Part shown: positions 7,881 to 51,228 of the stretch, piece by piece
Layout: every line of letters starts with the position of its first letter
Numbering within the stretch: position 1 is the stretch's first letter
From: Rubrivivax sp.
GTDB lineage: Bacteria > Pseudomonadota > Gammaproteobacteria > Burkholderiales > Burkholderiaceae_C
NCBI GenBank assembly: GCA_027485165.1
Contig: JAIXRN010000050.1
Location: 3,266-67,265 of the forward strand
Direction: 5' to 3'
DNA: 64,000 bases
Translations under genes and position numbers: made by a program
Notes under the pieces: generated by a model
Told to the model about the DNA's origin: nothing
Databases searched by the model: none
The model's input: only the letters and a program-made list of their open reading frames with translations

Positions 7881-7904
7881 AGTGCTGGCGCATTGAAACG
7901 CTGA

Positions 7905-8402
7905 ATGGCTGACGCGCCCATCGGCACGGCGGGCGCGGTACTGCGACAGGCCACGCGCGCCGACATCCCCGGCATTTGGGACGTGCGCTACGCGGTGCAG
8001 GAAAACACGCTGCGCCGGGGCGTCATCCACGACGAAGACGTGCGCGCGGCGATCGAGGACATCGGCCGCGGCTGGGTGGTGGCTGAAAGCGCCGAACCCG
8101 GCGCCCGCGTGCTGGCCTTCGCCATCGGGGTGATGGAACCGCCGCAACCGGTGGGCAAGGTGTGGGCGCTGTTCGTCCACCCCGACGCGCAGGGCCGTGG
8201 CTACGGCCATGCCCTGCACGACGTGATGCTGGCCTGGCTGCTGCTGCAGGGCGCGCAGCGGCTGTGGCTGGGCACGGGCCCTGGCACGCAGGCGTTGGGT
8301 TTCTACCTGCGGCGTGGCTGGCAGCTGAGCGCGACGCCGGCCGCGCCGGGGGAGGAAGACCTGGAACTCGAGTGGCCGGTGCTGGCGCCCGGCGGGGGCT
8401 GA
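7905..8402 (+). CDS. GNAT family N-acetyltransferase
   Basis: ALFVHPDAQGRGYG acetyl-CoA-binding motif and FYLRRGW motif B. Confidence 0.85.
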   Translation: MADAPIGTAGAVLRQATRADIPGIWDVRYAVQENTLRRGVIHDEDVRAAIEDIGRGWVVAESAEPGARVLAFAIGVMEPPQPVGKVWALFVHPDAQGRGYGHALHDVMLAWLLLQGAQRLWLGTGPGTQALGFYLRRGWQLSATPAAPGEEDLELEWPVLAPGGG

Positions 8403-8434
8403 AGCCGGCCCTGGCTGCGGGTTTGTTCCGAAGA

Positions 8435-8481
8435 CCGGAACCGGTTCCGGCTATCAGAATACCCAACCAAAACCGGTTTTG
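8435..8481. promoter_or_regulatory. Two LacI-type operator palindromes: CCGGAACCGGTTCCGG (8435-8450) and CAAAACCGGTTTTG (8468-8481)
   Basis: Both are perfect palindromes sharing an AACCGGTT core with central CG, directly upstream of a LacI gene; GGAG RBS near 8486. Confidence 0.8.
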
Positions 8482-8494
8482 AACTGGAGCTGTC

Positions 8495-9514
8495 GTGTCC
8501 ATTCGCAAGCTTGCCCAGTCCCTGGGCCTGTCGGTTTCCACCGTCTCGCGGGCCTTGAACGGCTACGCCGATGTCAACGCGGGCACGCGTGAACGGGTGG
8601 AACAAGCCGCGCGCGAGATCGGCTATCGCCCGCACCCCGTGGCGCGCCGGCTGGCCACTGGCCGCACCGGCGCGGTGGCGCTGATCTCGCCCGTGCTGGG
8701 CCCCAGCCGCTTCGACACCAGCTTTCCGCAGCTGATGCACGGCGTCACCAGCGGCCTGCAGGACGCCGGCTACTACCTGCTGTCGATGGCACTGCCTTCC
8801 GACGAAGGCGAACTGCCCGGCCTGCAGCGCCTGCTGGACGCCGGCGTGGTGGACGGCCTGATCCTCACCCGCACCCGCCCGCGCGACGCCCGCGTGGCGC
8901 TGCTGCAGGCGCGTGGCCTGCCCTTCGTCACCCACGGCCGCACCCTGCACAACGACCCCCACGCCTGGGTCGACACCGACAACGAACGCGCGATGCGCCT
9001 GGCCGTGGGCCGGCTGGTGACGCTGGGCCACCGCCGCATCGCCATGATCAACGGCCCCGGCGAGCTCACCTTCGCGCTGCTGCGGCGCGAAGGCTTCACC
9101 CAGGGCGTGGCCGCCGCCGGGCTGAATGGCGCGCATTGCCCCGTGGTGCACAGCGAACTGACCGCCGCCGCCGCGCACGCCGTGGCCATCGACCTGCTGC
9201 ACCCGGCCGACCGCGCGCTGCGCCCCACCGCCATCGTCTGCGCCAACGACGTGCTGGCGCTGGGGGCGGCCATGGCCTGCCGGCAAAGCGGGCTGCGCGT
9301 GGGCAAGGACATCTCGCTCACCGGTTACGGCAATTCCGAATCGGCCGAATTCAGCGACCCGCCGCTGACCACCGTCGACCACCAGGTGTTTGAAAGCGGC
9401 CGGCACCTGGCCGCACTGCTGATGCGGCGCATGGCCGGCGAAGCCCCGGAAGGCCTGCACGAACTGGAACCCGTGCGCCTGCTGGAACGCGCTTCCACCG
9501 CGCCGCCACCGTGA
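8495..9514 (+). CDS. LacI family transcriptional regulator
   Basis: SIRKLAQSLGLSVSTVSRALN HTH, IGYRPH hinge, periplasmic-binding-like C-terminal domain ending PPLTTV. Confidence 0.95.
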   Translation: MSIRKLAQSLGLSVSTVSRALNGYADVNAGTRERVEQAAREIGYRPHPVARRLATGRTGAVALISPVLGPSRFDTSFPQLMHGVTSGLQDAGYYLLSMALPSDEGELPGLQRLLDAGVVDGLILTRTRPRDARVALLQARGLPFVTHGRTLHNDPHAWVDTDNERAMRLAVGRLVTLGHRRIAMINGPGELTFALLRREGFTQGVAAAGLNGAHCPVVHSELTAAAAHAVAIDLLHPADRALRPTAIVCANDVLALGAAMACRQSGLRVGKDISLTGYGNSESAEFSDPPLTTVDHQVFESGRHLAALLMRRMAGEAPEGLHELEPVRLLERASTAPPP

Positions 9515-10794
9515 TGCGGCCCGCCTTCGGGCGCATGCTGGTGCTGATCGCCGCAGCACTGGCCGTGCCCGCCACTGTGGCCCAGACCACCATCGTCTCG
9601 ACGCAGATGCGCCCAGTCGAAGAGGCCGAGCTGATGCGCAAGCAGGTGCTGCAGGCACTGCCCGGCGGCGCCGCCTTCCTGCCCGAGGACGGCAACACCC
9701 TGCTCACGCGCATGCGCGCCGAACTGGGCGCGGCGCGCGGGCAGATCGATGTCGTCATCGCGCTCGACGGTGAGCTCGCCCCCATCGACCAGGAAGGCGG
9801 CCTGCAGGACCTGACGGATCTGGTGCAGCGCCTGTCGGCGACGCGTGAATTCGACCCCGCCGCGCTGGCTCTGGGCCGCATGGGCGGCAGCCAGCAGCGC
9901 TTCGTGCCGTTGATGACCAACACCTTCCAGATGGTGGCCAACAAGAAGGCGCTGCCCTACCTGCCCCCTGGCGCCAACCTGCACGCGCTGACCTACCCGC
10001 AGCTGCTGGCCTGGGGCCGCGCGCTGCAGGCCGCCACGGGCGAACGCAAGCTGGGCTTTCCTGCCGGGCCCCGCGGGCTGTGGTGGCGCTTCTTCCAGGC
10101 CAGCTTCTACCCCAGCCACACCGGGGGTGTGGTGCGCAGCTTTCGCAGCCCCGAAGCCGTGGCCGCATGGTCGGAGCTGCGTGAACTGTGGCAGGTGGTC
10201 AACCCGCGTTCCACCAGCTTCGCCTTCATGGAAGAGCCCTTGAAGACGGGCGAAGTGTGGGTGGCCTTCGACCACACCGCGCGCATGCTGCCGGCGCTGA
10301 CCGCCCGGCCAGACGACTTCGTCGCCTTCCCCGCGCCTGCGGGGGCCAAGGGCCGTGGCTTCATGCCCGTGCTGGTGGGCCTGGCCATCCCGCGCAACGC
10401 GCCCGACCGGGCTGCGGCAGAACGCGTGGTGGACCTGCTCACCCAGCCCGCCACGCAGGCCCGGCTGCTGGCGCTGTTCGGCTTCTTTCCGGTGGTGAAG
10501 ACCGACCTGTCCAGCCTGCCGGCCGGCGTGCGTGTGGCCGCCGCCGGCATGGCCGCCACGCTGAACGCGCCCGACGGCATCGCGTCGCGCCTGCCGGTGC
10601 AGCTGGGGCGCAAGAACGGCGAGTTCAACAAGATCTACGTCGACGCCTTCACGCGCATCGTGCTGCGCAACGAAGACATCGCCCGCGTGCTGCGCGAGGA
10701 ATCGCGCTGGCTCGACGAACTGCTGCAGGAAGCCCGCGTGCCCTGCTGGGCGCCCGACGCGTCCAGCGGCAGCCAGCCCTGCCGCGTGCAGTAG
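9511..10794 (+). CDS. Carbohydrate ABC transporter substrate-binding protein
   Basis: Signal peptide, CUT1 SBP-like length and position before two MalF/MalG-type permeases. Confidence 0.85.
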   Translation: MMRPAFGRMLVLIAAALAVPATVAQTTIVSTQMRPVEEAELMRKQVLQALPGGAAFLPEDGNTLLTRMRAELGAARGQIDVVIALDGELAPIDQEGGLQDLTDLVQRLSATREFDPAALALGRMGGSQQRFVPLMTNTFQMVANKKALPYLPPGANLHALTYPQLLAWGRALQAATGERKLGFPAGPRGLWWRFFQASFYPSHTGGVVRSFRSPEAVAAWSELRELWQVVNPRSTSFAFMEEPLKTGEVWVAFDHTARMLPALTARPDDFVAFPAPAGAKGRGFMPVLVGLAIPRNAPDRAAAERVVDLLTQPATQARLLALFGFFPVVKTDLSSLPAGVRVAAAGMAATLNAPDGIASRLPVQLGRKNGEFNKIYVDAFTRIVLRNEDIARVLREESRWLDELLQEARVPCWAPDASSGSQPCRVQ

Positions 10795-32399: not shown

Positions 32400-32909
32400 T
32401 CAGCCCTTGATTTCCGGCACGCGCAGCGAGGCGTCTGCCAGCACCGCGCCCAACGGGTGGGCGACGCCGGCTTCGGCGTCTTCCAGGCAGCGCAGCACCA
32501 GCGGGCTGCGCAGTCGGCCGGCCGCTGCCGCAAGCCGCACCTCATCCAAGGTGCACCACAGCGTGCGCACGATGCCTTCGTCCAAAGCGCGCGCCGGGTT
32601 GGGCGCATCGACCGTGCCCAGGTAGGCGAAGCGCACGTAGGTGACGTCTTCGCCGCTGGCCGGGCGCTGGAAGCGCGACAGGTAGACCCCCAGCAGCGCC
32701 TGGGGCTGGAAGACGCAGGTGGTTTCCTCCAGCGTCTCGCGGCACACGCCTTCCAGCGGCCCCTCCCCCGGTTCCAGATGCCCGGCCGGGTTGTTCAGCT
32801 TCAATCCTTCGGGGGTGTGTTCTTCCACCAGCAGATAGCGCCGCGGCAAGGCCGCGTCGTGCACGATGGCGGCCACGGTGACACTGGGTGCCCAACGGCG
32901 GGTATTCAT
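32400..32909 (-). CDS. Nudix hydrolase (NudJ-like)
   Basis: PSVTVAAIV and Nudix box PAGHLEPGE...RETLEET. Confidence 0.88.
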   Translation of the reverse strand: MNTRRWAPSVTVAAIVHDAALPRRYLLVEEHTPEGLKLNNPAGHLEPGEGPLEGVCRETLEETTCVFQPQALLGVYLSRFQRPASGEDVTYVRFAYLGTVDAPNPARALDEGIVRTLWCTLDEVRLAAAAGRLRSPLVLRCLEDAEAGVAHPLGAVLADASLRVPEIKG

Positions 32910-33036
32910 ACCATGCATGCTAGCCCTGCCTGCCTGGCATGGGTCTTTGTGGTAGCTTCGCAACCCTTTGGCGCCTGCTGGATCGACTCAGAAACCCGGC
33001 CGCCACCACACCCAAGACATTCGCGAGGAGCACTCG

Positions 33037-34632
33037 ATGCTGATAGGCGTTCCGCTGGAGACCGCGGCAGGAGAAAAGCGGGTGGCCACCGTGCCCGAAG
33101 TGGTGGAAAAGCTCGTCAAGCTGGGCTTCCAGGTGGCGGTGCAGGCCGGCGCGGGTGATGCGGCCAACTGCAGCGACGACGCCTACCGCGCTGCCGGTGC
33201 CGAGGTGCTGCCCGACGCGGCGGCCCTGTGGGCCCGGGCCGACATCGTCTTCAAGGTGCGCCCGCCCAGCGCTGACGAAGTGGCCCTGATGCGCACGGGC
33301 AGCATGCTCATCGGCTTCGTCTGGCCGGCGCAGAACCCGGCGCTGATGGAACTGCTGGCGGCCAAGGGCGCCACGGTACTGGCCATCGACGCGCTGCCGC
33401 GCCAACTGAGCCGCGCGCAGAAGATGGACGCGCTCACCTCACAGGCGGGCGTGACCGGCTACCGTGCCGTCATCGAGGCGGCGAATGCGTTCGGGCGTTT
33501 CTTCAACGGCCAGATCACGGCCGCGGGCAAGGTTCCGCCCGCCAAGGTCTTCGTGGCCGGCGCCGGCGTGGCAGGGCTGGCGGCGATCGGCACCGCGGCC
33601 AACCTGGGCGCCATCGTGCGCGCCAACGACACGCGCGCCGAGGTGGCCGACCAGGTGGTGTCGCTCGGCGGCGAATTCGTGAAGGTCGATTTCGAGGAAG
33701 AAGGCTCGGGCGGCGGCGGCTACGCCAAGGTCATGAGCGAGGGCTTCCAGAAGGCCCAGCGCGAGATGTACGCCAAGCAGGCGCGCGAGGTTGACATCAT
33801 CATCACCACGGCGCTGATCCCAGGCAAGCCGGCGCCCAAGCTCATCACCGCCGAGATGGTGGCCACGATGAAGCCGGGCAGCGTCATCGTCGACATGGCC
33901 GGCGAACAAGGCGGCAACTGCGAACTCACCGTGCCCGGCCAGGCCGTGGTGCGCCACGGCGTCACCATCGTCGGCTACACCGACCTGGCCAGCCGCCTGG
34001 CCAAGCAGAGCAGCACGCTGTACGCCAACAACCTGCTGCGCCTGACGGAAGAGCTGTGCAAGACGAAAGACGGCACGGTCAACGTCAACTTCGAAGACGA
34101 CGCGATCCGCGGCCTGACGGTCATCAAGGAAGGCGCCGTCACCTGGCCCGCGCCGCCGCCGAAGCTGCCGCCGGCACCGCCCCCATCCAAGTCCACGAAG
34201 GCCGATGCCGCCCCGACCGCCAAAGCCAAGGGCCACGGTCACGGCTCGGTGGAGCCGATGTCGGCCAAGACGCTGGGCATCGTGTTCGCGGTGGGCGCGG
34301 TGCTGTTCTGGTTCGTGGGCGCGTATGCGCCGGCCAGCTTCCTGCAGCACTTCACGGTGTTCGTGCTGGCCTGCTTCGTGGGCTACATGGTGGTGTGGAA
34401 CGTCACGCCCAGCTTGCACACGCCGCTGATGAGCGTGACGAACGCGATCAGCTCGATCATCGCCATCGGCGCGCTGGTGCAGGTGGCGCCGCCGCTGGAC
34501 GCCGCGGGCGCAGCCGACCGGCCGAACACGCTTATCCTGATATGCGCGGTCGTGGCCCTGGTGCTCACGGCCATCAACATGTTCGGCGGCTTCGCGGTGA
34601 CGCGTCGCATGCTCGACATGTTCCGCAAGTAA
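33037..34632 (+). CDS. pntA: NAD(P) transhydrogenase alpha subunit (fused dI plus TM, E. coli-like)
   Basis: [24 protein letters not shown] and [13 protein letters not shown] in one polypeptide; GAGGAG RBS. Confidence 0.97.
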
Positions 34633-34651: not shown

Positions 34652-36067
34652 ATGAGCGCAAGCCTCGCCACCGTCGCCTACATCGGCGCGATCATCCTGT
34701 TCATCATGAGCCTGGGCGGTCTCTCGAACCCCGAGACGGCACGCCGCGGCAACTTCCTGGGCATGGCCGGCATGGCGCTGGCCGTGGTCGCCACGGTGCT
34801 GGGCCCGCGCGTCACGGCCGCGGGTATCCCGTACATCGTCGGCGCGCTCGTCGTGGGTGGGGGCATTGGCGTTATCGCGGCCAAGAAGGTGCAGATGACG
34901 CAGATGCCCGAGCTCGTGGCCTTGATGCACAGCTTGGTGGGCCTGGCGGCCTGCCTGGTGGGCTTCGCAAGCTACGTGGACACGTCCACCGTGTTCCCGA
35001 CGCCTGTGGAGAAGACCATCCACGAGGTCGAGATCTACGTCGGCATCTTGATCGGCGCTGTCACCTTCTCGGGTTCGATCATCGCCTTCGGCAAGCTCAG
35101 CGGCAAGATCGGCGGCAAGCCGCTGCTGCTGCCGGGGCGCCACCTGCTGAACCTGGTGGGGCTGCTGGTGGTCGTCTACTTCGGCTACGTGTTCTTGCAG
35201 TCGCATGACGTCAACGCCGGCATGTGGCCGCTGCTGGTGATGACGGTGATCGCGCTGCTGTTCGGCATCCACATGGTGATGGCCATCGGCGGCGCCGACA
35301 TGCCAGTGGTGGTGAGCATGCTCAACAGCTACTCCGGCTGGGCCGCGGCGGCCACCGGCTTCATGCTGAGCAACGACCTGCTCATCGTCACGGGCGCGCT
35401 GGTCGGCAGCTCGGGGGCCATCCTCAGCTACATCATGTGCCGGGCGATGAACCGCAACTTCATCAGCGTCATCGCGGGTGGCTTCGGCGGCGGTGCGCCG
35501 GCGCCGGCAGCGGCCGGCGGCACGGCGCAACCGCAGGGCGAGGTGGTGCCGGTGAGCGCGGTGGAAACGGCTGAACTGCTGAAGGAAGCCAAGAGCGTGG
35601 TCATCGTGCCGGGCTACGGCATGGCCGTGGCGCAGGCGCAGCACACGGTGTTCGAGATCACCAAGCTGCTGCGCGACAGGGGCGTGAACATCCGCTTCGG
35701 CATCCACCCCGTGGCCGGCCGCATGCCGGGCCACATGAATGTGCTGCTGGCCGAAGCCAAGGTGCCGTACGACATCGTGCTGGAGATGGACGAGATCAAC
35801 GACGACTTCCCGGCCACGGACGTGACCATGGTCATCGGCGCCAACGACATCGTGAACCCGGCCGCACAGGACGACCCCACCAGCCCGATCGCCGGCATGC
35901 CGGTGCTTGAGGTGTGGAAGGCCAAGACCAGCATCGTGATGAAGCGCAGCATGGCCAGCGGCTACGCCGGCGTGGACAACCCGCTCTTCTACAAAGACAA
36001 CAACCGCATGCTGTTCGGCGATGCGAAGAAGATGCTGGACGAGGTGCTGACGGCCTTGCGGGCCTGA
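34652..36067 (+). CDS. pntB: NAD(P) transhydrogenase beta subunit
   Basis: [48 protein letters not shown] and [10 protein letters not shown] motifs. Confidence 0.98.
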
Positions 36068-36076
36068 ATCTTCCAG

Positions 36077-36303
36077 GGCGCCAACGGCGTGCTGAACGCC
36101 GCTACGCATGTGAAGGGCAGCAGCGCCATCCTCGGCATGCCCATCCTGGCAGCAGGCACGGCCAAGCCTGTGATCATGAACAAGCGCTCAATGGCCGGCG
36201 GCTCCGCGGGGCTGGATATCGAGCCGTCCCATATGGGCAAGCCATGATGGTGTCCGGCGACGCGAAGAAGATGGTCGAGGACATGGTCAAGGCGGTGCAA
36301 CAG
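36077..36303 (+). pseudogene. pntB: Degenerate 3' fragment of a second, different pntB (dIII domain), frameshifted
   Basis: Reads GANGVLNAATHVKGSSAILGMPIL...NKRSMAGGSAGLD..., then after a 1-nt frameshift MMVSGDAKKMVEDMVKAVQ. Confidence 0.85.
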
Positions 36304-36323
36304 TGCCCGTTCTGGCGTCTGGC

Positions 36324-36344
36324 GCAGCACCCCGAAGGTGCTGC
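36324..36344 (+). terminator. GC hairpin after the pntB fragment
   Basis: GCAGCACC-CCGAA-GGTGCTGC forms a perfect 8-bp stem, but there is no clear U tract. Confidence 0.35.
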
Positions 36345-36430
36345 CTCTGCGCCCGGCTTTGCCGCTGGCCAGCGCTTCAGAAGCTTTCAGTGGGGGCCGC
36401 CTCTGGCGCCCAAATGAAAATCCGTTACGA

Positions 36431-36475
36431 TTTCCTTTAGCAAGCGCTCGTATCGTGGCGGCTTGTGAAAGGAAA
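36431..36475 (+). promoter_or_regulatory. Inverted repeat covering the RBS of the fic gene
   Basis: TTTCCTTT-AG-CAAGC ... GCTTG-TG-AAAGGAAA; the right arm contains AAGGA just upstream of the GTG at 36481. Confidence 0.6.
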
Positions 36476-36480
36476 GCCTG

Positions 36481-37656
36481 GTGGACTACCCTCAACGCGC
36501 TGGCCGGTACGTCCAGCAGGCCACGGGCTACAAGGCCTACCTGCCAGCGCCCCTGCCGCCGGAACCGCCGTTGCTGTACGACGGCGAATTGCAGACCCTG
36601 CTGTCAGGGGCAGACCGAGACATCGGACGGCTGGATGCCCTGGCCGCGCTGCTGCCCAACCCCGACCTGTTTGTGGCGATGTATGTCCGGCACGAAGCCG
36701 TCCTGTCGTCGCAGATCGAGGGCACGCAGAGCTCGCTGGAAGATGTGCTGGCGTTCGAAGTCGACGCCCTGCGCGATGACGCACCGCGCGACGTAGAGGA
36801 AGTGGTCAACTATGTTCGCGCGATGAACCATGGCCTCGCGCGCCTGAAGGACCTGCCGCTGTCGCTGCGCCTGTTGCGAGAAATCCATGCCGAACTGATG
36901 CGTGGCGTGCGCGGCGGCGATAAATCGCCGGGCGAATTCCGGGCCTCCCAGAATTGGATCGGCGGCGCTGGCAGTACCTTGCGCACGGCCAGCTTTGTAC
37001 CGCCGCCGGCTCACGAGTTGATGTCCTGCCTGGGACAGCTGGAAGTCTTCCTGCACGAAGGGCGCCAGACCGTGCCGCTGCTGGTGCGCTGCGCGCTGGC
37101 ACACGCACAGTTCGAGACCATCCACCCCTTCCTGGACGGCAACGGCCGTGTCGGCCGGCTATTGGTGACGCTGATGCTGTGTGAAGACGGCGCGCTATCG
37201 CGCCCTCTGCTGTATCTGTCGCTATACCTGAAAGCGCACCGCGCCGAGTATTACGACCGTCTCACCGCGATCCGTACCCAGGGCCACTGGGAAGCCTGGA
37301 CCGCCTTCTTCCTGCGCGGCGTGAGCCTGACCGCCAGGGCGGCGACGCACACGGCCCAGGCCATCGTCGCGCTGCGCGACGCGCATCGCGGATCGGTGCG
37401 CCGTAACGCCAAGGCGCTGGCGCTGCTGGACCACCTGATGCTGCAGCCCACGGTCAGCATCAGGCGCGTGGCCACCCTGCTGGGCTGTACCCAGCCCACG
37501 GCAGCCAAGCTGGTGGGCGACCTGGAAACGCGCGGCTGGCTGCGCGAAGTCACGGGTTATGGCCGCAACCGCCTGTGGCGCTACCAGCCTTACGTTGACC
37601 TGTTCCATGCCGACGCGCTGCAGGCCCTGGTGCCGCTGACCCCCACAAGCCCTTGA
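36481..37656 (+). CDS. Fic family protein (Fic_N-Fic-HTH, SoFic-like AMPylase)
   Basis: EAVLSSQIEGT, intact HPFLDGNGRVGR motif, RPLLYLS, EYYDRL and a C-terminal HTH-like region ending RNRLW.Y. Confidence 0.93.
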   Translation: MDYPQRAGRYVQQATGYKAYLPAPLPPEPPLLYDGELQTLLSGADRDIGRLDALAALLPNPDLFVAMYVRHEAVLSSQIEGTQSSLEDVLAFEVDALRDDAPRDVEEVVNYVRAMNHGLARLKDLPLSLRLLREIHAELMRGVRGGDKSPGEFRASQNWIGGAGSTLRTASFVPPPAHELMSCLGQLEVFLHEGRQTVPLLVRCALAHAQFETIHPFLDGNGRVGRLLVTLMLCEDGALSRPLLYLSLYLKAHRAEYYDRLTAIRTQGHWEAWTAFFLRGVSLTARAATHTAQAIVALRDAHRGSVRRNAKALALLDHLMLQPTVSIRRVATLLGCTQPTAAKLVGDLETRGWLREVTGYGRNRLWRYQPYVDLFHADALQALVPLTPTSP

Positions 37657-37663
37657 ACCCACG

Positions 37664-37900
37664 ATGCCCACCCTGAACTGGCTGAACCGAGAGGCCGCCT
37701 TTCGCACCGCGCAAGCGGTACCCACGCGCGTGCTGCGCCCGCATGCGGCGGGGCACCGCTTCGGCGACGCTGACGGCGCACCGGGCCAGGTCGGCCGCTT
37801 GTGGGCCGAGCGCAGCCGTCAACGTGCGGTGTTTGCCCTGGTGTTTCGCAATGAGCGGGGGATGGCGGTCAACCAGCAGATCGACGCCGCCCTGGCATGA
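37664..37900 (+). pseudogene. Putative in-frame fusion of a Type III R-M Mod N-terminus and Res C-terminus (collapsed operon)
   Basis: The first ~38 aa (MPTLNWLNREAAFRTAQAVPTRVL) resemble Mod N-termini. The last ~38 aa (QVGRLWAERSRQRAVFALVF..ERGM.V.QQIDAALA) resemble Res C-termini. Both matches are from memory. Confidence 0.55.
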
Positions 37901-37902
37901 CG

Positions 37903-38040
37903 GTGAGACGTTCATGCCCTCCAGCGATCAGCGGCTACGCCGGGCTGAACGAGGAACTGTTCTACATGGCCAAGACGAGGATGGTGTTCTGCGACGCCAA
38001 GAAGGTGGTCGAGGATATGGTCAAGGCGGTGGAACAAGGC
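37903..38040 (+). pseudogene. pntB: Third pntB 3' end fragment
   Basis: SGYAGLNEELFYMAKTRMVFCDAKKVVEDMVKAVEQ; 37981-38036 matches 36247-36302 at 50/56 nt. Confidence 0.85.
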
Positions 38041-38210
38041 CGGGGCCGGTGTAGACAGCAAGCGCACCCCAATTCACGGGTGTGCGAACGCCACGCAATC
38101 AGGCCAACCGCCTGCATCAACCATATCCGCCGCGGGGCCTTCATCTGGCCGGGCGGCCCGGGGCACCGGATCATCCTGTCTTCCCTACACCTTGATGTCG
38201 ACCCTGCTGC

Positions 38211-39125
38211 ATGCGCCCGCTGGACGAGAAGGACTTCGCCCTGGCGGCCGAGTTGCTGCACGAGGGCTTTCCACGCCTGCGGCCCGCGTTCTGGGCCGCG
38301 GCGCTGCAACGCCTGCAGCGCTACGGCGGCAACGCTCAGACCGGCGTGCCGCTGGGCTGGTTCATGCTGCAGGGTGATGAACCGGTGGGCGTGGTGCTGA
38401 CGCCAGCCAGCCTGCGCCAGAGGCCCGACGGCAGCAGCCAGTGCGTCGTCAATCTCAGCAGCTGGTACGTGCGGCCGGAATTCCGCTGGCGCGCCGGCTT
38501 CATGTTGCGGGGCGTGCTGAACGACGCCACCACCGTCTACACCGACCTCACGCCCACCCCGGAAGTGCAGAAGATGCTGCCCCTGTTGGGCTTCGATGCC
38601 GTCAACCGCGGCGTTGCCCTGCACCTGCTGCCGCTGCTGTGCCTGCACCCGGGCGGTGGCGGCCAGCTGCGGGTGCTGCAGCCGGGCGAACCCTGGCCAC
38701 ATGCCGGCCCGCCGCGCGAACAGATCGAAGCCCACCGTGAACTGGGTTGCCTGCCCCTGGTGCTGCAGCCCGCCACGGGCGCACCGCAGTTGCTGGTGCT
38801 GAAACTGTGCCGGCTGCGCGGGCTGCCGGCGGCGCAGCTGGTGTATGCCGACAGCATCTCGCAGCTGCTGGCGCACCGCGGCGCGCTGGCGCGGCTGCTG
38901 TTGCGCCAGGGCGTGCTGCTGTTCATGCATGACGCGCGCCAGCCGGGCAGCACGCCCACGCGCTGGTTCCGCCGTCGCGACCTGTGGTTCGTGCGCGGCT
39001 CCGGCTTTGCCGACCGCACCGACGCCTTCGCGTCCGAGCTGTGCATCATCCACGCCAGCCGCACACAGGCGCCTGCCGGGCCGGCCAGCCCCGACACGGC
39101 ACGCACGGCGGGCCCGGCTTGCTAG
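38211..39125 (+). CDS. GNAT-like acyltransferase of unknown substrate
   Basis: VNLSSWYVRPEFR and TDLTPTPEV..MLPLLGF resemble GNAT motifs A and B; it overlaps the flippase start. Confidence 0.55.
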   Translation: MRPLDEKDFALAAELLHEGFPRLRPAFWAAALQRLQRYGGNAQTGVPLGWFMLQGDEPVGVVLTPASLRQRPDGSSQCVVNLSSWYVRPEFRWRAGFMLRGVLNDATTVYTDLTPTPEVQKMLPLLGFDAVNRGVALHLLPLLCLHPGGGGQLRVLQPGEPWPHAGPPREQIEAHRELGCLPLVLQPATGAPQLLVLKLCRLRGLPAAQLVYADSISQLLAHRGALARLLLRQGVLLFMHDARQPGSTPTRWFRRRDLWFVRGSGFADRTDAFASELCIIHASRTQAPAGPASPDTARTAGPAC

Positions 39126-40576
39126 TCCGCCACACGCTGGCTTACCTGCCGGCGCAGCTGCTCAGCCCGCTGACGCAGCTGGTCGCGGCGCTGCTGCTGA
39201 CGCACGCGCTGGGCGCGGCCGACTACGGCCTGGTGATGCTGGTGTTCGCAGCCCAGGAAGTGGTGTTCCTGATCTGCCTGTCGTGGTGGACCACCTTCTA
39301 CCTGCGCTACGGCGGCCGGCTGAACCTGGGCGCCGACGGCCAGGCCCTGGCCAGCACCGAGGCCGCGGTTTTGCTGCTGTCTTCCTTGGCCCAGGTGGCC
39401 GTCACACTGGGCATCGTGCTGGCCACCGACGCCGGGCTACCGCTGGTCTTCTTCGCTGCGGCCTGTGCCTTCACCGTCAGCCGCAGCCTGCTGCAGTTCC
39501 TGGGCGAACGCGCGCGCCGCGAAGCCGCCATCGCCGCCTACACCGCCGTGCAGGTGGCCGGCCCGCTAGGCGGCCTGGGCCTGGTGGGGGTGCTGATGGC
39601 GCTGGACGCCGCCACCCCGGCGCGTGTGCTGGGTGCCTTCGCTTTGATGCAAGGCGCCGTGGGCCTGGCGGTGGCCGCACGGCTGCGCCTGCTGGTGCGC
39701 CCGCGCGCGCTGGACCACGCCGTGCTGCGCGCCGCCGCGCGCTTCGGCGGGCCGGTGGTGTTCGCGCATTCGCTCAGCTGGCTGGGCGGCAACGTCATCC
39801 GCTTTGTCGTGCACCACGGCGCTGGCGCGGCGGCCCTGGGCTTGATGTCGGTGGGCTGGGGCCTGGCCACACGGCTTTCAGGCGTGGCCGCGATGCTGGT
39901 GGCGGCAGCGGCCTACCCGCTGGCCGTGAAGACGATGGAAGCCGGCGACCCCGCCGGCGCCCGCCGGCAGATCGCCGACAACTCGGCCCTGCTGCTGGCG
40001 CTGCTGGCACCGGCCGGCTTCGGCTTCTGGGCGCTGGCGCCGGGCCTGGTGCCGGCCCTGGTGGCCCCCGAATACCACGCCGTGACGCTGCAGATCCTGC
40101 CCTGGGCGCTGCTGGGCGCCTGCGTGCGCAACCTGCGGCTGCACGGCTGGGATTCCTGCTACCTGCTGTTCGAAGCCCCGCGCGACATGGTCTGGCTGGA
40201 CGTCATCGAATCCACCGTGATGCTGCTGGCCGCCGTGCTGGGGCTGTGGTGGGCAGGCGTCTGGGGCGCTGTGGCCGCCAGCGCCTGGGCCATCTGCGCG
40301 CTGGCCGTGCTGGACGCGCTGTGGCTGCGCCACCGCTTCGGCCTGGTGCTGCCGATGGGGGTGTACGGGCGCGTGCTACTGGCCGCGGCGGCGATGGTGG
40401 GTGCGTTGCTGGGCGCGCAGGCGCTGGGCTGGCGCGCGGCGCCACAGGTCGGGCCGCTGCTGCTGGCGGCAGCGGCCGGGGCGGGGGTGTACGGGCTGGC
40501 GCTGGCGCTGCTGTTTCCGCAGCAGCGAAGCAGCGTCACGCGCTGGCTGCGCCAGCGGCGGCTGGCGGGGGCTTAG
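39119..40576 (+). CDS. Polysaccharide flippase (Wzx/MOP family)
   Basis: About 12-13 hydrophobic segments, N-terminal RHTLAYLPAQL, 'YGLVMLVFA' and AAYPLA; the TTG start is inferred. Confidence 0.75.
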   Translation: MLVRHTLAYLPAQLLSPLTQLVAALLLTHALGAADYGLVMLVFAAQEVVFLICLSWWTTFYLRYGGRLNLGADGQALASTEAAVLLLSSLAQVAVTLGIVLATDAGLPLVFFAAACAFTVSRSLLQFLGERARREAAIAAYTAVQVAGPLGGLGLVGVLMALDAATPARVLGAFALMQGAVGLAVAARLRLLVRPRALDHAVLRAAARFGGPVVFAHSLSWLGGNVIRFVVHHGAGAAALGLMSVGWGLATRLSGVAAMLVAAAAYPLAVKTMEAGDPAGARRQIADNSALLLALLAPAGFGFWALAPGLVPALVAPEYHAVTLQILPWALLGACVRNLRLHGWDSCYLLFEAPRDMVWLDVIESTVMLLAAVLGLWWAGVWGAVAASAWAICALAVLDALWLRHRFGLVLPMGVYGRVLLAAAAMVGALLGAQALGWRAAPQVGPLLLAAAAGAGVYGLALALLFPQQRSSVTRWLRQRRLAGA

Positions 40577-44986: not shown

Positions 44987-46324
44987 ATGCGCCTTGTCCC
45001 TCTCGTCAGCGCTGCCATCGCCACCGCCTGTCTGTCGGTTTCCGTCGCCCAGGCCGCCCCCACCTGGATCACGATCGGCGAAAAGCCTTACCTGCAGCTG
45101 CTGAAGGTGGCCCCCGAAGTGCGCGCCGTGGCCAGCCGCCGCGTGCCGGTGATGAAGCCCGAACTGCGCGGCAGCAGCACCCTGGTGCAGGGCGCCGAAT
45201 CGGTCTACGCCGTGCAGGTGGATGACGAGGTGCTCGACCAGCTGTCGGAAGCCGTGCACCGCGAACTGCACCGCTGCGGCAGCTATGTGCGGCATGCATC
45301 CGAAGCCGAGGCCCTGGCCGTGCTGCACCGCCTGACGACGCCGGTCGCGCCCCAGCGCCTGCCCAGCTACGCAGTGGACAACCCCGAGCTGGTGAACCCG
45401 CGGCTGCCGCTGATGCAGGCCAGCAACATCCTGTCCACCATTACCCAGCTGCAGTCGTTCCAGAACCGCCGCCACAACAGCAGCCACGGCGCGAACGCGT
45501 CGAACTGGATCTTCAGCCAGTGGCAGGCGCTTAACCCTGGCAACCGCCGCGACGTGCGCGTGACGCAGACCACGCACACCACCACGCCACAGAAGTCGGT
45601 GGAATTCAACATCACCGGTTCGGGCAACAGCGGCGAGACCATCGTGCTGGGCGCGCACCTGGACAGTATCAACGGCGGCAGCAGCACGGCCGAGACCCAG
45701 CGCGCGCCGGGCGCCGACGACGACGCCAGCGGCGTGGCTTCGCTGACCGAAATCATCCGCGTGATGATGGCCAGCGGCTACACCCCCAAGCGCAACATCC
45801 GCTTCATCGCCTATGCGGCGGAAGAAGTGGGGCTGGTGGGTTCCCGCGCCATCGTCGCTGCGCTGCCCGGCCGGCGCGACAGGACCGTGGGCGTGCTGCA
45901 GCTGGACATGACGGCCTTCCAGGGCGACGCCACCGACCTGTGGATCTACACCGACTTCACCAACGCGTCGCAGAACCAGTTCCTGGCCAGCCTGGCCGCG
46001 ACTTACCTGCCCACGCTGACGGTGGGCTACGACTTCTGCGGCTACGGCTGTTCCGACCACGCCAGCTGGCACAACGCCGGCTACCCGGCGTCGTTCCCGT
46101 TCGAGGCCAGCGACGCCACGTTCAACTTCTCGCTGCACACCGTTAACGACACCACGGCCACGTTCGGCAACCAGGCTGACCATGCGCTGAAGTTCGCCCG
46201 TCTGGGCCTGGCCTACGCCATCGAACTGGCCAGCGACGGCACCCCGGCCGCCGCGGTGACGGGCGTGGCACCGGCAGTCCGCACCGCCACGGCAGCCGCC
46301 CCGACGCCGGCGCGCACGCGCTGA
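44987..46324 (+). CDS. Secreted M28 leucyl aminopeptidase
   Basis: Signal and propeptide; GAHLDS, GADDDASG, AAEEVG, QLDM and SDH Zn-ligand motifs. Confidence 0.92.
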   Translation: MRLVPLVSAAIATACLSVSVAQAAPTWITIGEKPYLQLLKVAPEVRAVASRRVPVMKPELRGSSTLVQGAESVYAVQVDDEVLDQLSEAVHRELHRCGSYVRHASEAEALAVLHRLTTPVAPQRLPSYAVDNPELVNPRLPLMQASNILSTITQLQSFQNRRHNSSHGANASNWIFSQWQALNPGNRRDVRVTQTTHTTTPQKSVEFNITGSGNSGETIVLGAHLDSINGGSSTAETQRAPGADDDASGVASLTEIIRVMMASGYTPKRNIRFIAYAAEEVGLVGSRAIVAALPGRRDRTVGVLQLDMTAFQGDATDLWIYTDFTNASQNQFLASLAATYLPTLTVGYDFCGYGCSDHASWHNAGYPASFPFEASDATFNFSLHTVNDTTATFGNQADHALKFARLGLAYAIELASDGTPAAAVTGVAPAVRTATAAAPTPARTR

Positions 46325-46385: not shown

Positions 46386-49364
46386 TCAGCGGCCCTGCAG
46401 CACCAGGCGCACGGCGCTGGCCACGTCCAGCGCCAGGCCCTGATGCCACAGGGCTTCGCAACGCTGCGCACCGATCTGCCGCGTCACCACGCCGCGCAGC
46501 CGGCGGATGTGGCGTTCGTCTTCCTGCACCAGCGGGCCGAACTGGCGGGTCCAGAAGACCGAGGCAAAGGCCATCAGCTGCACGGCCGCTTCAGGTTGGC
46601 CCAGCCGCGCCAGCACCCGCGGCGGGTTCCACAGCGCGTAGGCCAGGCCGTGGCGGAACCAGCGCTGCCAGCACAGCGCCAGGCAGCGGCGGTTGGCGTC
46701 CAGGGCGGCCTGCCACTGGCGCTGCTGGGCCAGCAGTTCGGCCATCGAGATGAGGCTGTCGATCTGCCCGATCCAGTCGCCTTCTGCCAGCGCCACCTGT
46801 TCGCACTGGCGGTAGGCGGCCATGGCTTCGGCGCTGCGCCCCAGCTGGCGCCAGCACTGGGCGCGGTTGCGCAGCCGCGCGTGCGCCCGACGCCGGTCGC
46901 CCAGCGCCAGCCACAGCGCCTGGGCCTGGGCGAACAGGGCTTCAGCCCCGGCCACGTCAGCGCCGGCTGCGCTGGCGTGCACATGGCCGGCCAGCACGCC
47001 CAGCTGCTGCAGCGCCAGCGCCTGCGCGGCCAGATCGCCGCTGGTGCGGGCCAGGTCCAGGGCTTCCTGCAGTTGCGCGCGCACCTGCGCGTGCTGCGGC
47101 GTGGCGCGGTCGGCAGCGCGGCCGGCCGCGATGTCCACCCAGGCCCGGCGCACCAGCGCGCGCGCCCGCGGCGCGGGTGCGCTACCGGCAGCGGCCAGAG
47201 CGGCGTCGGCATGCGCGCGCGCCTCGGCCACGAAGCCGGTGCCAAAGCGCAGATAGGCCAGCAGTTCGTGCGCGTCGGCGCGCAGCGGGTCGGCCGCGGG
47301 CAAGGTGCGCAGCGCGCTTTCCAGCGCCAGCAGCAGGCGCACCGGCAGGGCGTCGTGGTCGAAATGCGCGCGCAAGCTCACGGCCAGCTGTACCGCCTGG
47401 CGCGGCGCGCCATCCGCTTCGGCACTGGCCAGCATGGCGTGCACATGCGCCAGTTCGGGCGCCACGCGCGCCGGGCTGGGCAGTGGGCCCAGGTCGGCCG
47501 CCCAGCCCAGCAGCCAGTCGCGCAGCCGCGCACGCAGCGCAGCCGCCTGCGCGCCCGCGTGCTGCAGCGCAAATTCGCGCACGGGCTCGACGATGTCGAA
47601 GCGGGCGCTGTCGCTGGCACCGTCCAGCGGCCCCGATACGACCGCCCCGCCGCCCGTCGGGCTGCCCGAGGCCACGCGCACCAGCGAATGGTCGACCAGC
47701 GCGTCCAGCCGCGCCGCAGCCTGCGCCAGCGGGCTGGCCGTCACGGCGGCCACGGCGGCGGCGCTGGCGCTGCTGCCCATCACCGCCAGGGCTGTCAGGG
47801 TGTGCTGGCTGGCCGGGTCCAGCAGCTGCCAGCTCCAGGCGATGACCTGGGTCATCGACGCGTGGCGCGGGTCCAGCGCCGACCGCGCCCCGCCGCGTTC
47901 CAGCAGGCTCAGCTGGCCACCGCCGGCCGGCAGCGACAGCAGGCGCAGCAGTTCGGCTGGCGGAAAGCTGCGCACGCGCGAAGCCGCCAGCTCGATGGCC
48001 AGTGGCAGCCCGTGCAGCAGCCGCACCAGGCCGATGACAGCGGCACAGTGCCGTTCGGTGAGATGGAATTCGCTGCGCACCGCGCGCGCGCGGTCGGCAA
48101 ACAGGGCCACCGCCGGGTTGGCGGCGGCCTCGGCCAGGCCGCCCTCTTCGGGCGGCAGGGCCAGGGGCTCGGCCTGGAACAGCACTTCGCCGTCCAGCCC
48201 CAGGCGGCGGCGCGACGTCACCAAGATGCGCAGCTGCGGCAGCAGGGTCAGCAGCTCGGCCACCACGCTTTCGGCCCGGCCCACCAGCTGTTCAAAGTTG
48301 TCCAGCACCAGCAGCACGCGCAACCCCGACAGCGCAGCCTGCACGGCTTCGGGCCGGTCGGCACCGGGCAGGCGCAGCGCATGGGCGATGGCGTCCAGCA
48401 GCTGCGGCGCGTCCTGGCAGCCCACCAGGGACACGAAGGCCACGGCGTCGAAGCCCGCTGCTGCGACGCTGCCGCCGTCGGCCGGCCAAGACGGCGGGTG
48501 GCGCAGAGCCTGGGCCACTTCCACGCCCAGGCGGGTCTTGCCGCTGCCGCCCGGGCCCAGCAGGCTGACCAGGCGGTGCTGCAGCACCAGGGCGCGCAGC
48601 CGCGCGGTGGCCAGCTCGGCACCGAACAGCCGGGTCAGGTAGGCCGGCAACGGCGGGCCGACCGGGCTGTGGGGCAGGCTGGCCGAAGCGGCGGCCGGGG
48701 CCATCGAAGCGAGGGGGACTGCTGAAGCGGCCGAAGCGGCTGAAGCTGTGGAAGCCGCCGAAGCTGCTGAAGTGACTGAAGCGCCGGTGGCAGCGGAAGC
48801 CGAAGCGGAAGCGACCGCGCCAGCGGAAGGCAGCCGGCGCTGGTCGATCTGTTCGGCCAGCCCGGCCAGGCGCTGGCGTTCGGTCTCGATCCAGTCCCCG
48901 TAATGCCCGGGCATCAGCTCACCGCCATACAGCGCCGCCGCCTCGTCGGCCTGGCCGGCGCGGGCCAGGCGCTCGAAGCGCAGCACGTCGCAATCCAGCG
49001 CCCCGGGCGCCACGCGCACGTAGACGCGGTCGGCCAGCAGCACCCGGCTGCCGGGCTGGTGCGCGGGCTCGAGCAAGCTCTTCAGCGTCGACAAGGCCTG
49101 GCGCAGCCGGTTGCGGCCCACATCGGGCGCAGCGCCCGGCCACAGCAGTTCGGCCAGTTCTTCGCGCGCGTGGGCACGGCCGGGTGCCATCGCCAGCCTG
49201 GCCAGCAGCGCCGCCACGGCGCGCGACGGGAAACGGTCGAGGGTCTGGACGCCGTCGTGCGCACGCACGCCACCCAGCAGGCTGACCATCCAGCGCGCTT
49301 CGCCCTGCACGGCAGCAGCGCTGGCCGGGGCCTGGCGGAAGGGGGCGGGCGCCTGTGGGGGCAT
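46386..49364 (-). CDS. AfsR/SARP-like regulator (wHTH-BTAD-NB-ARC/STAND-TPR)
   Basis: LLARLA...REELAELLWP...RLRQALSTL (wHTH), LYGGELMPG..W (BTAD), GPGGSGKTRL, LVLDNFE, LHGLPLAIELAA and TPR-like tail. Confidence 0.88.
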   Translation of the reverse strand: MPPQAPAPFRQAPASAAAVQGEARWMVSLLGGVRAHDGVQTLDRFPSRAVAALLARLAMAPGRAHAREELAELLWPGAAPDVGRNRLRQALSTLKSLLEPAHQPGSRVLLADRVYVRVAPGALDCDVLRFERLARAGQADEAAALYGGELMPGHYGDWIETERQRLAGLAEQIDQRRLPSAGAVASASASAATGASVTSAASAASTASAASAASAVPLASMAPAAASASLPHSPVGPPLPAYLTRLFGAELATARLRALVLQHRLVSLLGPGGSGKTRLGVEVAQALRHPPSWPADGGSVAAAGFDAVAFVSLVGCQDAPQLLDAIAHALRLPGADRPEAVQAALSGLRVLLVLDNFEQLVGRAESVVAELLTLLPQLRILVTSRRRLGLDGEVLFQAEPLALPPEEGGLAEAAANPAVALFADRARAVRSEFHLTERHCAAVIGLVRLLHGLPLAIELAASRVRSFPPAELLRLLSLPAGGGQLSLLERGGARSALDPRHASMTQVIAWSWQLLDPASQHTLTALAVMGSSASAAAVAAVTASPLAQAAARLDALVDHSLVRVASGSPTGGGAVVSGPLDGASDSARFDIVEPVREFALQHAGAQAAALRARLRDWLLGWAADLGPLPSPARVAPELAHVHAMLASAEADGAPRQAVQLAVSLRAHFDHDALPVRLLLALESALRTLPAADPLRADAHELLAYLRFGTGFVAEARAHADAALAAAGSAPAPRARALVRRAWVDIAAGRAADRATPQHAQVRAQLQEALDLARTSGDLAAQALALQQLGVLAGHVHASAAGADVAGAEALFAQAQALWLALGDRRRAHARLRNRAQCWRQLGRSAEAMAAYRQCEQVALAEGDWIGQIDSLISMAELLAQQRQWQAALDANRRCLALCWQRWFRHGLAYALWNPPRVLARLGQPEAAVQLMAFASVFWTRQFGPLVQEDERHIRRLRGVVTRQIGAQRCEALWHQGLALDVASAVRLVLQGR
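48718..48812 (-). repeat. Degenerate 9-bp repeats encoding a Ser/Ala linker
   Basis: Seven consecutive NNNGAAGNN units from 48721 to 48783 encode SAA/STA repeats between BTAD and NB-ARC. Confidence 0.8.
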
Positions 49365-49563
49365 GGTGCTGCAGTCTAGGCGCGCGATGCAACGGGGTGG
49401 CGCCCCCACTGGGGGCGGCAGGGCAGGCGGCCACCCGGCCGGGGGGTGCGGGCATGGCGCCGGTACAGGGGGCCCGCTATCGAATGTCCTGATGCCCTGG
49501 GCGTCAGCTTGGCGTCAGAATGCGTTTTCCACAGGTTCCCCAGGCCTGCCAACCCCCCACGGG

Positions 49564-51228
49564 ATGAACACACCCCTCGCAGACCTGCACAGCGGCCCGC
49601 AAACCCTGTCAGCCATGTTGGCCGACAGCTGCCGGCGCTGGCCCACGCGCCCGGCACTCACCTGCCTGTGGCGCAGCCTGAGCTACGCCGAACTAGACGC
49701 CGAATCGCTGGCCCTGGCCGGCTGGCTGCAGGCCCGCGGCTTGCAGCGCGGCGACCGCGTGGCCGTGATGCTGCCCAACCTGCCGCAGCTGCCGGTAGCC
49801 GTGGCGGCGGTGCTGCGCGCCGGCATGGTGCTGGTGAACATCGCGCCGCAGTGCGCGGCTGCCGACCTGGAATTCCTGCTGAAGGACGCCGGCGCACGCG
49901 CCGTGATCGCCATCGACGAAGCCCTGCCCACGCTGTGCGAGGTACAGCACCGCCTGCCCATCAAGCACCTGGTCATCACCACACCCGGCGACCTGCTGGG
50001 CGCCCTGCGCGGGCGCTGGGTCAACCACCGCCGGCCCGTCTTCCATGCCCAAGCGCAGGCGGCGAGCAGCCCGCAGGCCCTGCCGGGCACAGAAAGCTTT
50101 CGCGAGGCGCTGGACCAAGGCCGCAAAGCCGGCTTCCGGGCAGTGGATGTGGCGCCTGACGACATCGCGCTGCTGCAGTACACGTCCGGCACCACCGGCC
50201 GGCCGCTGGGGGCGGTGCTGCTGCACCGGCAGATCGTGGCCAACCTGGCGCAGTGCCAGTCCTGGTTCGAACCCGCGCTGCGCCGCCTGCCGCCCCAGCA
50301 GGCCCTGGTGACGGCCTGCGCCCTGCCCCTGCACCACATCTACGGCTTCAGCGTGGCGCTGATGTTCACGCTGCGGCTGGGCGGCTGCGCCCTGCTGCTG
50401 CCGCACCCCGAAGACACCGCCGCCACGCTGAAGGCGCTGGCGCAGCACCCGGTGCATTGCCTGCCGGGCACCGACGCGCTGTTCCTGGCGCTGGCCAGCC
50501 ACCCGGCCTGTGCCAGCGTGGACTGGTCTGGCCTGCGGCTGGCGGTGGGGGGCAGCACGCCCGTGCAGCAGGCCACCGCGCAGCTGTGGCAGCAGCGCAC
50601 CGGCAGCGCGCTCTGCGAAGGCTACGGGCTGACCGAGACCAGCCCGGTTGTGACCTGCAACCCGGTCGACGCGCCAACCTGGACGGGCAGCATCGGCCTG
50701 CCCCTGCCCGGCACCGAACTGCGCCTGCTGGACGACCAGGGTCAGGCCGTGGACCCGGGCATGGCTGGCGAAATCGCCGTGCGCGGGCCGCAGGTCATGG
50801 CCGGCTACTGGCAGCGCCCCGAAGCCACGGCGCGCGTGATGACCGCCGACGGCTTCTTCCGCACCGGCGACATCGGCGTGCTGGACGACGCCGGCCAGCT
50901 GCGCCTGGTCGACCGCAAGCGCGACACCATCTTCGTCAGCGGCTTCAACGTCTACCCCAGCGAAGTGGAAGGCGTGGTGACGCAGCTGCCCGGCGTGGCC
51001 GAATGTGCCGCCGTGGCCCTGCGCGACGCGCGCGTGGGCGAAGCCGTGAGGCTGGTGGTGGTGAAAGCCGACCCCAGCAGCAGCTACCCCAGCGAAGCCG
51101 ACGTGCGCGCGCACTGCGAAGCGCACCTGAGCGGCCACAAGCGCCCGCGCCTGGTGGAATTCCGCGCCACCCTGCCCAAGACGCCGGCCGGCAAGCTGCT
51201 GCGCCGCGCGCTGCGCGAACAGAGCTGA
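49564..51228 (+). CDS. Long-chain acyl-CoA synthetase-like AMP-binding enzyme
   Basis: YTSGTTGRPLG, EGYGLTETSP, FRTGD, VSGFNVYPSEVE and PKTPAGKLLRR motifs. Confidence 0.9.
   Translation: MNTPLADLHSGPQTLSAMLADSCRRWPTRPALTCLWRSLSYAELDAESLALAGWLQARGLQRGDRVAVMLPNLPQLPVAVAAVLRAGMVLVNIAPQCAAADLEFLLKDAGARAVIAIDEALPTLCEVQHRLPIKHLVITTPGDLLGALRGRWVNHRRPVFHAQAQAASSPQALPGTESFREALDQGRKAGFRAVDVAPDDIALLQYTSGTTGRPLGAVLLHRQIVANLAQCQSWFEPALRRLPPQQALVTACALPLHHIYGFSVALMFTLRLGGCALLLPHPEDTAATLKALAQHPVHCLPGTDALFLALASHPACASVDWSGLRLAVGGSTPVQQATAQLWQQRTGSALCEGYGLTETSPVVTCNPVDAPTWTGSIGLPLPGTELRLLDDQGQAVDPGMAGEIAVRGPQVMAGYWQRPEATARVMTADGFFRTGDIGVLDDAGQLRLVDRKRDTIFVSGFNVYPSEVEGVVTQLPGVAECAAVALRDARVGEAVRLVVVKADPSSSYPSEADVRAHCEAHLSGHKRPRLVEFRATLPKTPAGKLLRRALREQS

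Follow-up and report, generated by a model that had tools for sequence, protein, structure and literature searches.

How did a cassette of defence genes come to lie between duplicated 3′ ends of pntB, a housekeeping transhydrogenase gene? This question is raised by the window, a 64,000-nt stretch of a Rubrivivax sp. genome (G000; contig JAIXRN010000050.1 of assembly GCA_027485165.1). A preliminary description had taken the duplicated ends for attL and attR, left behind by an integrative element that had restored its target gene and had since lost its integrase. We compared the locus with the genomes of relatives, denoted here by G-numbers, including 222 genomes in a genus comparison. These comparisons point to another answer: the 3′ end of pntB in the window probably bears nested scars from two or more recombination events without an integrase, as well as an internal deletion. 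The finding is a well-documented further case of a published kind of rearrangement, and a mechanism based on an integrase and att sites is not supported.

Three pntB tails of two types in the window

The sequence features reported earlier were reproduced. Positions 36247–36302 and 37981–38036 are identical at 50 of 56 nucleotides, exactly as counted before, and only fic and a 78-codon open reading frame (ORF) lie between them (36481–37656 and 37664–37900). Both repeats encode the C-terminus of PntB, although of type II, unlike the adjoining intact gene, and each is followed by a GC hairpin (−27.2 and −22.9 kcal/mol) that lacks a T-run. A terminator scan found no canonical terminator after either tail. 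The homology of the repeats to pntB, however, extends beyond the 56 nt given previously: with the 50/56 core included, the direct repeats span about 106 nt at 79% identity, which exceeds 30 bp. A repeat search recovered one family with three members, at 36246–36318 (the reference), 37980–38052 (82%), and 36007–36079 (63%), the weakest of which is the tail of the intact pntB. The window contains three pntB tails rather than two, namely that of the intact type I gene and two remnants, which we call frag1 and frag2 (Table 1). Nucleotide identity of frag1 and frag2 to the type I tail of their own genome is only 63–71%.

Two types of pnt operon were common in the genus comparison. Type I, as in the window, encodes a fused PntA and a 471-aa PntB, and type II encodes a split PntAA/PntAB and a 478-aa PntB; the two PntB types share about 51% aa identity across their whole length, rising to about 60% in the C-terminal 80 residues. 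The window's pntA is 78–90% identical in aa sequence to that of the type I relatives G016, G013, and G227, compared with just 44–55% for the split pntAA/pntAB of type II relatives; its listed ORF begins at TTG, and the true start is probably a little further downstream. Both types occupy the same chromosomal slot in many relatives, between a homologue of window positions 32400–32963 upstream and homologues of 44987–46324, 46389–49514, and onward downstream. Empty arrangements were also found: pntB(II) of G006 leads straight into a homologue of orf304, and pntB of G017, G012, and G013 leads into the next conserved gene. These candidate empty-site genomes are other species at 55–90% identity and not sibling strains.

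The two remnants differ in their surroundings. The first, frag1, begins immediately 3′ of the stop codon of the type I pntB, is 81% nt identical to the type II pntB 3′ ends of G006, G027, and G017, and carries a 1-nt deletion near 36245 and a stop codon mutated to CAG. We read frag1 as the stump left after a type I gene replaced the type II pntB. The earlier view that an element had restored its target gene is not supported here, since the left repeat, as the stump of the replaced type II pntB, does not restore the present pntB. The second, frag2, retains an intact reading frame with its stop codon mutated to CAA, and it is 89.6% nt identical to the type II pntB of G006 and G027 (83–86% aa). 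In G006, pntB(II) is directly followed by homologues of orf304 and of the flippase (60% and up to 81% aa), and frag2, the spacer, and orf304 are colinear with this arrangement. This colinearity indicates that frag2 is the original tail of the ancestral type II gene with its old neighbours still attached.

A search of the window's own assembly, in which 7% of the genome is unassembled, found one complete pntB plus the two fragments. A paralogous pntB as the source of the fragments was rejected on this ground.

Table 1. Features of the pnt locus in the window (positions in the 64,000-nt stretch)
Feature	Position	Strand	Basis
pntA, fused alpha subunit, type I (E. coli-like) operon	32968..34632	+	homology to relatives
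pntB, intact, type I, 471 aa	34652..36067	+	Pfam PNTB E 6e-200
frag1, type II pntB pseudogene stump, codons ~402-478 (~78 codons)	36068..36302	+	alignment
GC hairpin 3′ of frag1 (GCAGCACC...GGTGCTGC), no T-run	36324..36344	+	fold of 36300-36360, −27.2 kcal/mol
SoFic-type Fic protein, 391 aa, Fic_N + Fic + C-terminal winged helix-turn-helix	36481..37656	+	Pfam, PADLOC
78-codon ORF, first half, type III Mod methyltransferase N-terminus	37664..37780	+	PADLOC MTase_III positions 1-28, E 3e-4
78-codon ORF, second half, type III Res C-terminus	37785..37900	+	alignment to G118
frag2, type II pntB tail	37900..38036 (left edge approximate)	+	homology clear from 37929 (SGYAG...), possible from ~37900
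GC hairpin 3′ of frag2 (GCGCACCC...GGGTGTGC), no T-run	38062..38085	+	fold of 38036-38100, −22.9 kcal/mol
orf304 (38211-39125) and HfsF-like polysaccharide flippase (38984-40576), old neighbours of type II pntB	38211..40576	+	G006 gene order

Among these old neighbours, the flippase matched NCBIfam HfsF (E 1e-11), and orf304 had no family match in Pfam or NCBIfam. We observed that orf304, conserved directly 3′ of pntB in G006 at 60% aa, overlaps the start region of the flippase ORF. An inverted repeat with 7-bp arms (GGCATGA...TCATGCC) was also noted at 37885–37915, extending across the stop codon of Res where frag2 is joined. In reverse complement, its right half matches a sequence from within Res in G016, possibly by chance (blastn E 0.17).

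A complete island in a relative and parallel structures at pntB

The statement that the repeats bracket a defence cassette was borne out. The fic gene is predicted to be a full-length SoFic defence gene: its product matched Pfam Fic_N (2e-27) and Fic (1e-18), the PADLOC SoFic model PDLC03963 was covered from 5 to 359 of 361 positions (E 8e-119), and the catalytic motif HxFx(D/E)GNGRxxR, read from the sequence as HPFLDGNGRVGR at about 37122–37157, is intact. The 78-codon ORF is what remains of a collapsed type III restriction-modification (R-M) system. It had no match in a tblastn search against plasmids or in Pfam, and it was identified only by PADLOC and by comparison with the relative G118.

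In G118, the whole arrangement lies on one 66-kb contig, in the order conserved upstream gene, pntAA, pntAB, complete pntB(II), SoFic, Mod, Res, a second pntB(II) tail, and conserved downstream flank. The SoFic protein is 47% aa identical to that of the window. Homologues of both R and M are present in the insert: Res matched PADLOC REase_III through position 894 of 898 (E 6e-152), and Mod, which is frameshifted in that assembly, matched MTase_III on two pieces (E 6e-67 and 3e-62). Window positions 37664–37770 align to the start of the G118 Mod (80.6% nt; 67% aa), and positions 37785–38041 align to the G118 Res end plus the pntB tail (72.8% over 257 nt). These alignments show that about 4.2 kb was lost between 37770 and 37785. 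The insert, about 5.7 kb in G118 and about 1.6 kb of which remains in the window, is below 20 kb in both cases. Only 78 codons are left in the window, which lacks a complete Mod or Res and hence a functional type III R-M system.

The spare pntB(II) tail of G118 comprises about 35–50 codons and has the same right junction as that of the window. The direct repeats in G118 measure about 108 nt at about 92% identity; by a hand count on the alignment, about 9 of 108 nt distinguish the spare tail from the intact copy. When bases were scored against 16 other intact genes, just 2 of 105 bases in the spare tail were absent from them. Since almost all bases of this tail are seen in other intact genes, the two copies are indicated to be different natural alleles and not a gene and its decayed self-copy. 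Such an allele difference would be expected had one copy come from a donor.

Defence genes follow pntB in further relatives. G016, of type I, carries a SoFic gene that has lost its 5′ end (82% aa), a Mod/Res pair that collapsed independently, and then vapBC. G004, also of type I, carries another Fic and then type I hsdR and hsdS, and in the type II genome G027 a Fic gene lies directly 3′ of pntB. These findings indicate that the space 3′ of pntB is a small defence islet in several lineages. As a side observation, the region 3′ of the collapsed Mod/Res in G016 (L023, G016:C4, about 7700–8100) encodes, judging from translation only, an AbrB-type antitoxin and a PIN toxin resembling vapBC.

The proposal that the pntB 3′ end is a hotspot was supported by duplicated tails with cargo between them in four genomes (G118, G163, G227, and G575) and by further remnants in G410 and G481. 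In G163, a SoFic gene (78% aa) lies between the tails, and the right fragment starts from codon ~353. G227 has a type I operon, then a single gene for an ABC substrate-binding protein, and then a type I fragment from codon 385; its tail copies are 88% identical over 252 nt. G575, from another family, carries vapB-vapC as cargo and a fragment from codon 409; here the duplicated stretch takes in the terminator as well, with 95% identity between the copies over 207 nt. G410 and G481, from a third family, have a complete type I operon and a hairpin, then a type II tail from codon ~431.

The junctions accordingly fall at about five positions: codon ~353 (G163), 385 of type I (G227), 402 of type II at the joint between the window's pntB(I) and frag1, 409 (G575), and 431–437 (frag2/G118 and G410/G481). 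No crossover core common to the independent insertions was found. Four genus genomes have the structure on one contig, and three more cases were found in a 400-genome sample of the order; the structure is rare but recurrent. We also found that many metagenome contigs break within the last ~100 codons of type II pntB; in G066, one contig ends and two start there (C218, C62, and C74). By a rough count, about a quarter of the type II matches listed have an open frame shorter than 400 aa. This pattern suggests repeats or strain variation at this place, either of which would fit. Fragments at G526:C9 and G432:C42 were discarded as merely contig ends.

Proposed recombination at the pntB tail and its alternatives

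We suggest that three events shaped the window. In one, SoFic, Mod, and Res would have come between a complete type II pntB and a duplicate of its last 35–50 codons, through one RecA-type homologous exchange in the conserved pntB tail and one illegitimate joint. The route may have been homology-facilitated illegitimate recombination (HFIR) or a Campbell-type integration, in which a circularised fragment with a pntB tail enters by a single crossover. Either route would leave pntB complete and followed by the cargo, with a displaced tail that can be of any length, and neither would require an enzyme encoded by the element. The tail frag2 would then be the displaced copy with the old downstream genes still joined. 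The resulting structure is seen in G118 and can be traced in the window by homology, and from it we infer the mechanism. Its pattern is the one published as insertion with long target duplication.

In a second event, the type II operon up to codon ~401 would have been replaced by type I pntA-pntB, the stop codon of which now abuts frag1; this arrangement is observed directly in the window. A third event, the ~4.2-kb deletion shown by alignment to G118, created the 78-codon ORF by joining the beginning of mod to the terminal part of res, and it left SoFic as the sole intact defence gene. Repeated rounds of such exchange would stack tails as in the window, where the conserved anchor pntB(I) is followed in series by frag1, the cassette, and frag2. 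The gene may be hit repeatedly because its tail is near-invariant across the order, because the end of the operon lies beside a flexible region, and because only events that leave a complete pntB survive.

The first two events may have taken place in either order, since the decay statistics do not separate them. Substitutions in frag1 that are absent from the 16 intact genes numbered 19/129, 7/47, and 3/57 in its three segments. Neither a dating or ordering of the remnants from these counts (26/176 in the first two segments against 3/57 in the last 56 nt, Fisher p = 0.066; 7/105 in frag2) nor an interpretation of frag1 as a mosaic was retained, the difference being too weak to prove either.

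A classical integrative island, as assumed in the preliminary description, would instead involve a tyrosine or serine recombinase acting on an att core in the pntB tail, with the replacement tail serving as attL/attR and the integrase since deleted or supplied in trans. Several observations would suit it: direct repeats of the target 3′ end flank defence cargo, the left copy makes pntB whole in G118, G575, and G227, the right junction is common to the window and G118, and the G410/G481 junction, about 3 codons away at most, falls at a 20-nt stretch common to both pntB types. We nevertheless regard this explanation as unlikely. The complete island of G118 contains ORFs for Fic, Mod, and Res only, with no recombinase among them. 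The earlier observation that no integrase is left in the window extends to its whole contig, for the tyrosine as well as the serine type. The tyrosine integrase family (PF00589) had no match on G000:C67 (67 kb), G118:C155 (66 kb), G227:C6 (334 kb), or G066:C62/C74, and the serine recombinase family (PF00239) had none anywhere in G000, G118, G163, or G227; its sole match in G575 was on a different contig. Moreover, the codon at which the junction falls varies from event to event, and the cargo includes a whole pnt operon and a lone binding-protein gene. The left edge of frag1 is not an att site either: it abuts the stop codon of a gene whose sequence has diverged too far for a homologous or att-type crossover there.

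Some points do weigh against integrase-free recombination. Two apparently independent events, one in G118 and the window and the other in G410 and G481, joined within a few codons of each other, both at the start of the 20-nt stretch shared by the two pntB types (ATGGCCAGCGGCTACGCCGG, read from alignments). A site-specific enzyme would also give near-coincident junctions, and a preference of recombination for this stretch explains them too. Several cargos end flush with the gene end, which is tidier than random joints unless they were trimmed by selection. Most relatives are fragmented metagenome bins, and integrases may act in trans. Finally, we found no donor or true empty-site sibling close enough for the base-by-base comparison that would score microhomology at the illegitimate joints, which were placed within ~20 nt.

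It is equally doubtful that the cargo and one tail form a self-propagating cassette, which would loop out as a circle and re-enter the pntB tail of another cell by a single crossover. If so, the last 100–370 nt of pntB would act as a portable homology arm of an integrase-free mobile cassette that needs RecA alone, and pntB would be a shared landing pad for defence and toxin–antitoxin genes across the order, a prospect to which we attach little probability. The existence of related SoFic genes (46–82% aa) directly after pntB of either type in different lineages would fit this idea, as would the duplicated unit of G575, with its terminator and 95% identity over 207 nt, and the two natural alleles in G118. 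A "virus-like life cycle" has also been hypothesized for R-M systems (PMC2853133). However, ordinary flanking homologous recombination would spread such islands as well as cassette circles would, the junctions vary with the cargo, and each cassette would still need its own founding illegitimate event.

It is very improbable that the 3′ region of pntB was duplicated in tandem in situ, with cargo later inserted between the two copies while the spare one decayed. A direct-orientation duplicate is indeed the primary product of such an event, and there is little or no cargo between the copies in G410/G481 and at the pntB–frag1 joint, but simple tandem duplication does not explain spare tails that are type II beside an intact type I gene (in the window and in G410/G481). 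The window's own genome offers no type II gene as a template, and the spare tail of G118 resembles the functional allele of another strain.

Relation to known systems and further observations

R-M systems of types I–IV are known to insert with long, variable target duplications (46–423 bp) and without mobility genes, with cases in Burkholderia and Acidovorax (PMC2853133; for insertion with long target duplication, see Nobusato et al. 2000, as cited in Furuta et al. 2010, NAR 38:2428). The present locus resembles these inserts in that an R-M system, here of type III and accompanied by SoFic, occupies less than 20 kb and has no mobility gene. In both, the direct repeats far exceed transposon duplications, vary in length, and may reach into the 3′ end of the gene upstream; beta-proteobacterial cases are also known. 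Unlike in the published inserts, one gene tail here serves unrelated cargos (R-M with SoFic, SoFic, vapBC, a binding-protein gene, and a whole pnt operon), and the repeats are 5–20% diverged and look like different alleles. The window also shows nesting of two scars, and a xenologue has since taken the place of the resident gene.

Phage 21 and e14, which insert into icd, are integrative elements that rebuild the 3′ end of a protein-coding gene; they encode an integrase and use a single core crossover site. As in those elements, the target gene is intact and has a substitute 3′ end, and the original 3′ end has been displaced beyond the insert, but the locus has no integrase and its junction positions vary.

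A parallel to the stacking is offered by rhs, contact-dependent inhibition (CDI), and type VI secretion system (T6SS) loci; HFIR has been held responsible for serial 3′ displacement at rhs/T6SS loci (Kirchberger et al. 2017, PMC5361080; Jackson et al. 2009, as cited there). There too, a conserved 5′ anchor receives a new 3′ part together with downstream genes, and the old 3′ ends pile up in series downstream. Those loci, however, encode polymorphic toxins whose displaced 3′ ends are different toxin domains with immunity genes, whereas here a housekeeping gene for a transhydrogenase is affected, its tails hardly differ in function, and it is the DNA between them that forms the payload. In Pelagibacter, pntB itself is a recombining border gene of a replacement flexible genomic island (Lopez-Perez et al. 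2014, PMC4033161), which likewise is a variable island beside a conserved gene that takes the crossover. Those islands show clean allelic replacement with single-nucleotide polymorphism peaks and no duplicated tails, unlike the duplicated gene tails described here.

Duplicated gene ends around a defence cassette are easily mistaken for the footprint of a lost integrase, a reading that is not supported here. The locus adds a well-resolved natural example to a little-used concept, insertion with long target duplication and displacement of 3′ ends, with an intact relative for comparison, a deletion inside the insert, and several parallel cases that arose independently at pntB. For the annotation of defence islets, we propose searching for extra copies of the tail of the upstream gene, with variable lengths taken to indicate recombination and not an att site. 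If it were true that such cassettes move by their repeats, the tails of housekeeping genes would constitute a general enzyme-free route for spreading defence genes.

Pieces of pnt genes were also found in other contexts and were not used as evidence. Besides its intact type I operon, G016 carries a third pnt operon on the minus strand of C5 (L035, about 7400–10325), which is heavily decayed and broken into several frames (pntA 35–56%, pntB 38–50% aa). Isolated type II pntB tail fragments occur in G108 (L034, C259, 6785–7015) and G188 (L037, C426, 4759–4965), divergent beside a paralogue (39–43% aa) of the window gene at 49024–51225; this is a different locus, and the intact pntB of these genomes is of type I. 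In G084, a 130-codon type I pntB fragment with 86% aa identity to that of the window lies on the minus strand (L036, C36, 7135–7524), where it adjoins lactate permease and lutABC-like genes, away from the intact pnt operon of that genome.

We also screened the window's own genome for remnants of other gene tails, using blastn self-matches and tblastn searches in which the C-terminal 70 aa of each of 7,633 long ORFs were compared with the 15 kb that follow. Among the matches inspected in these crude screens, whose checking was non-exhaustive, no other clear case was found; the matches outside pntB were tandem paralogues, palindromic repeats, tRNAs, or wrong-frame repeats. One pair noted in passing, at G000:C21:111360–111461 and 111583–111684, consists of two copies of a 102-nt element that are 87% identical and have complementary ends (GGGTGGCCCC/GGGGCCACCC). 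One copy overlaps the end of a long ORF, and the element looks like a repetitive extragenic palindromic (REP)-type repeat.

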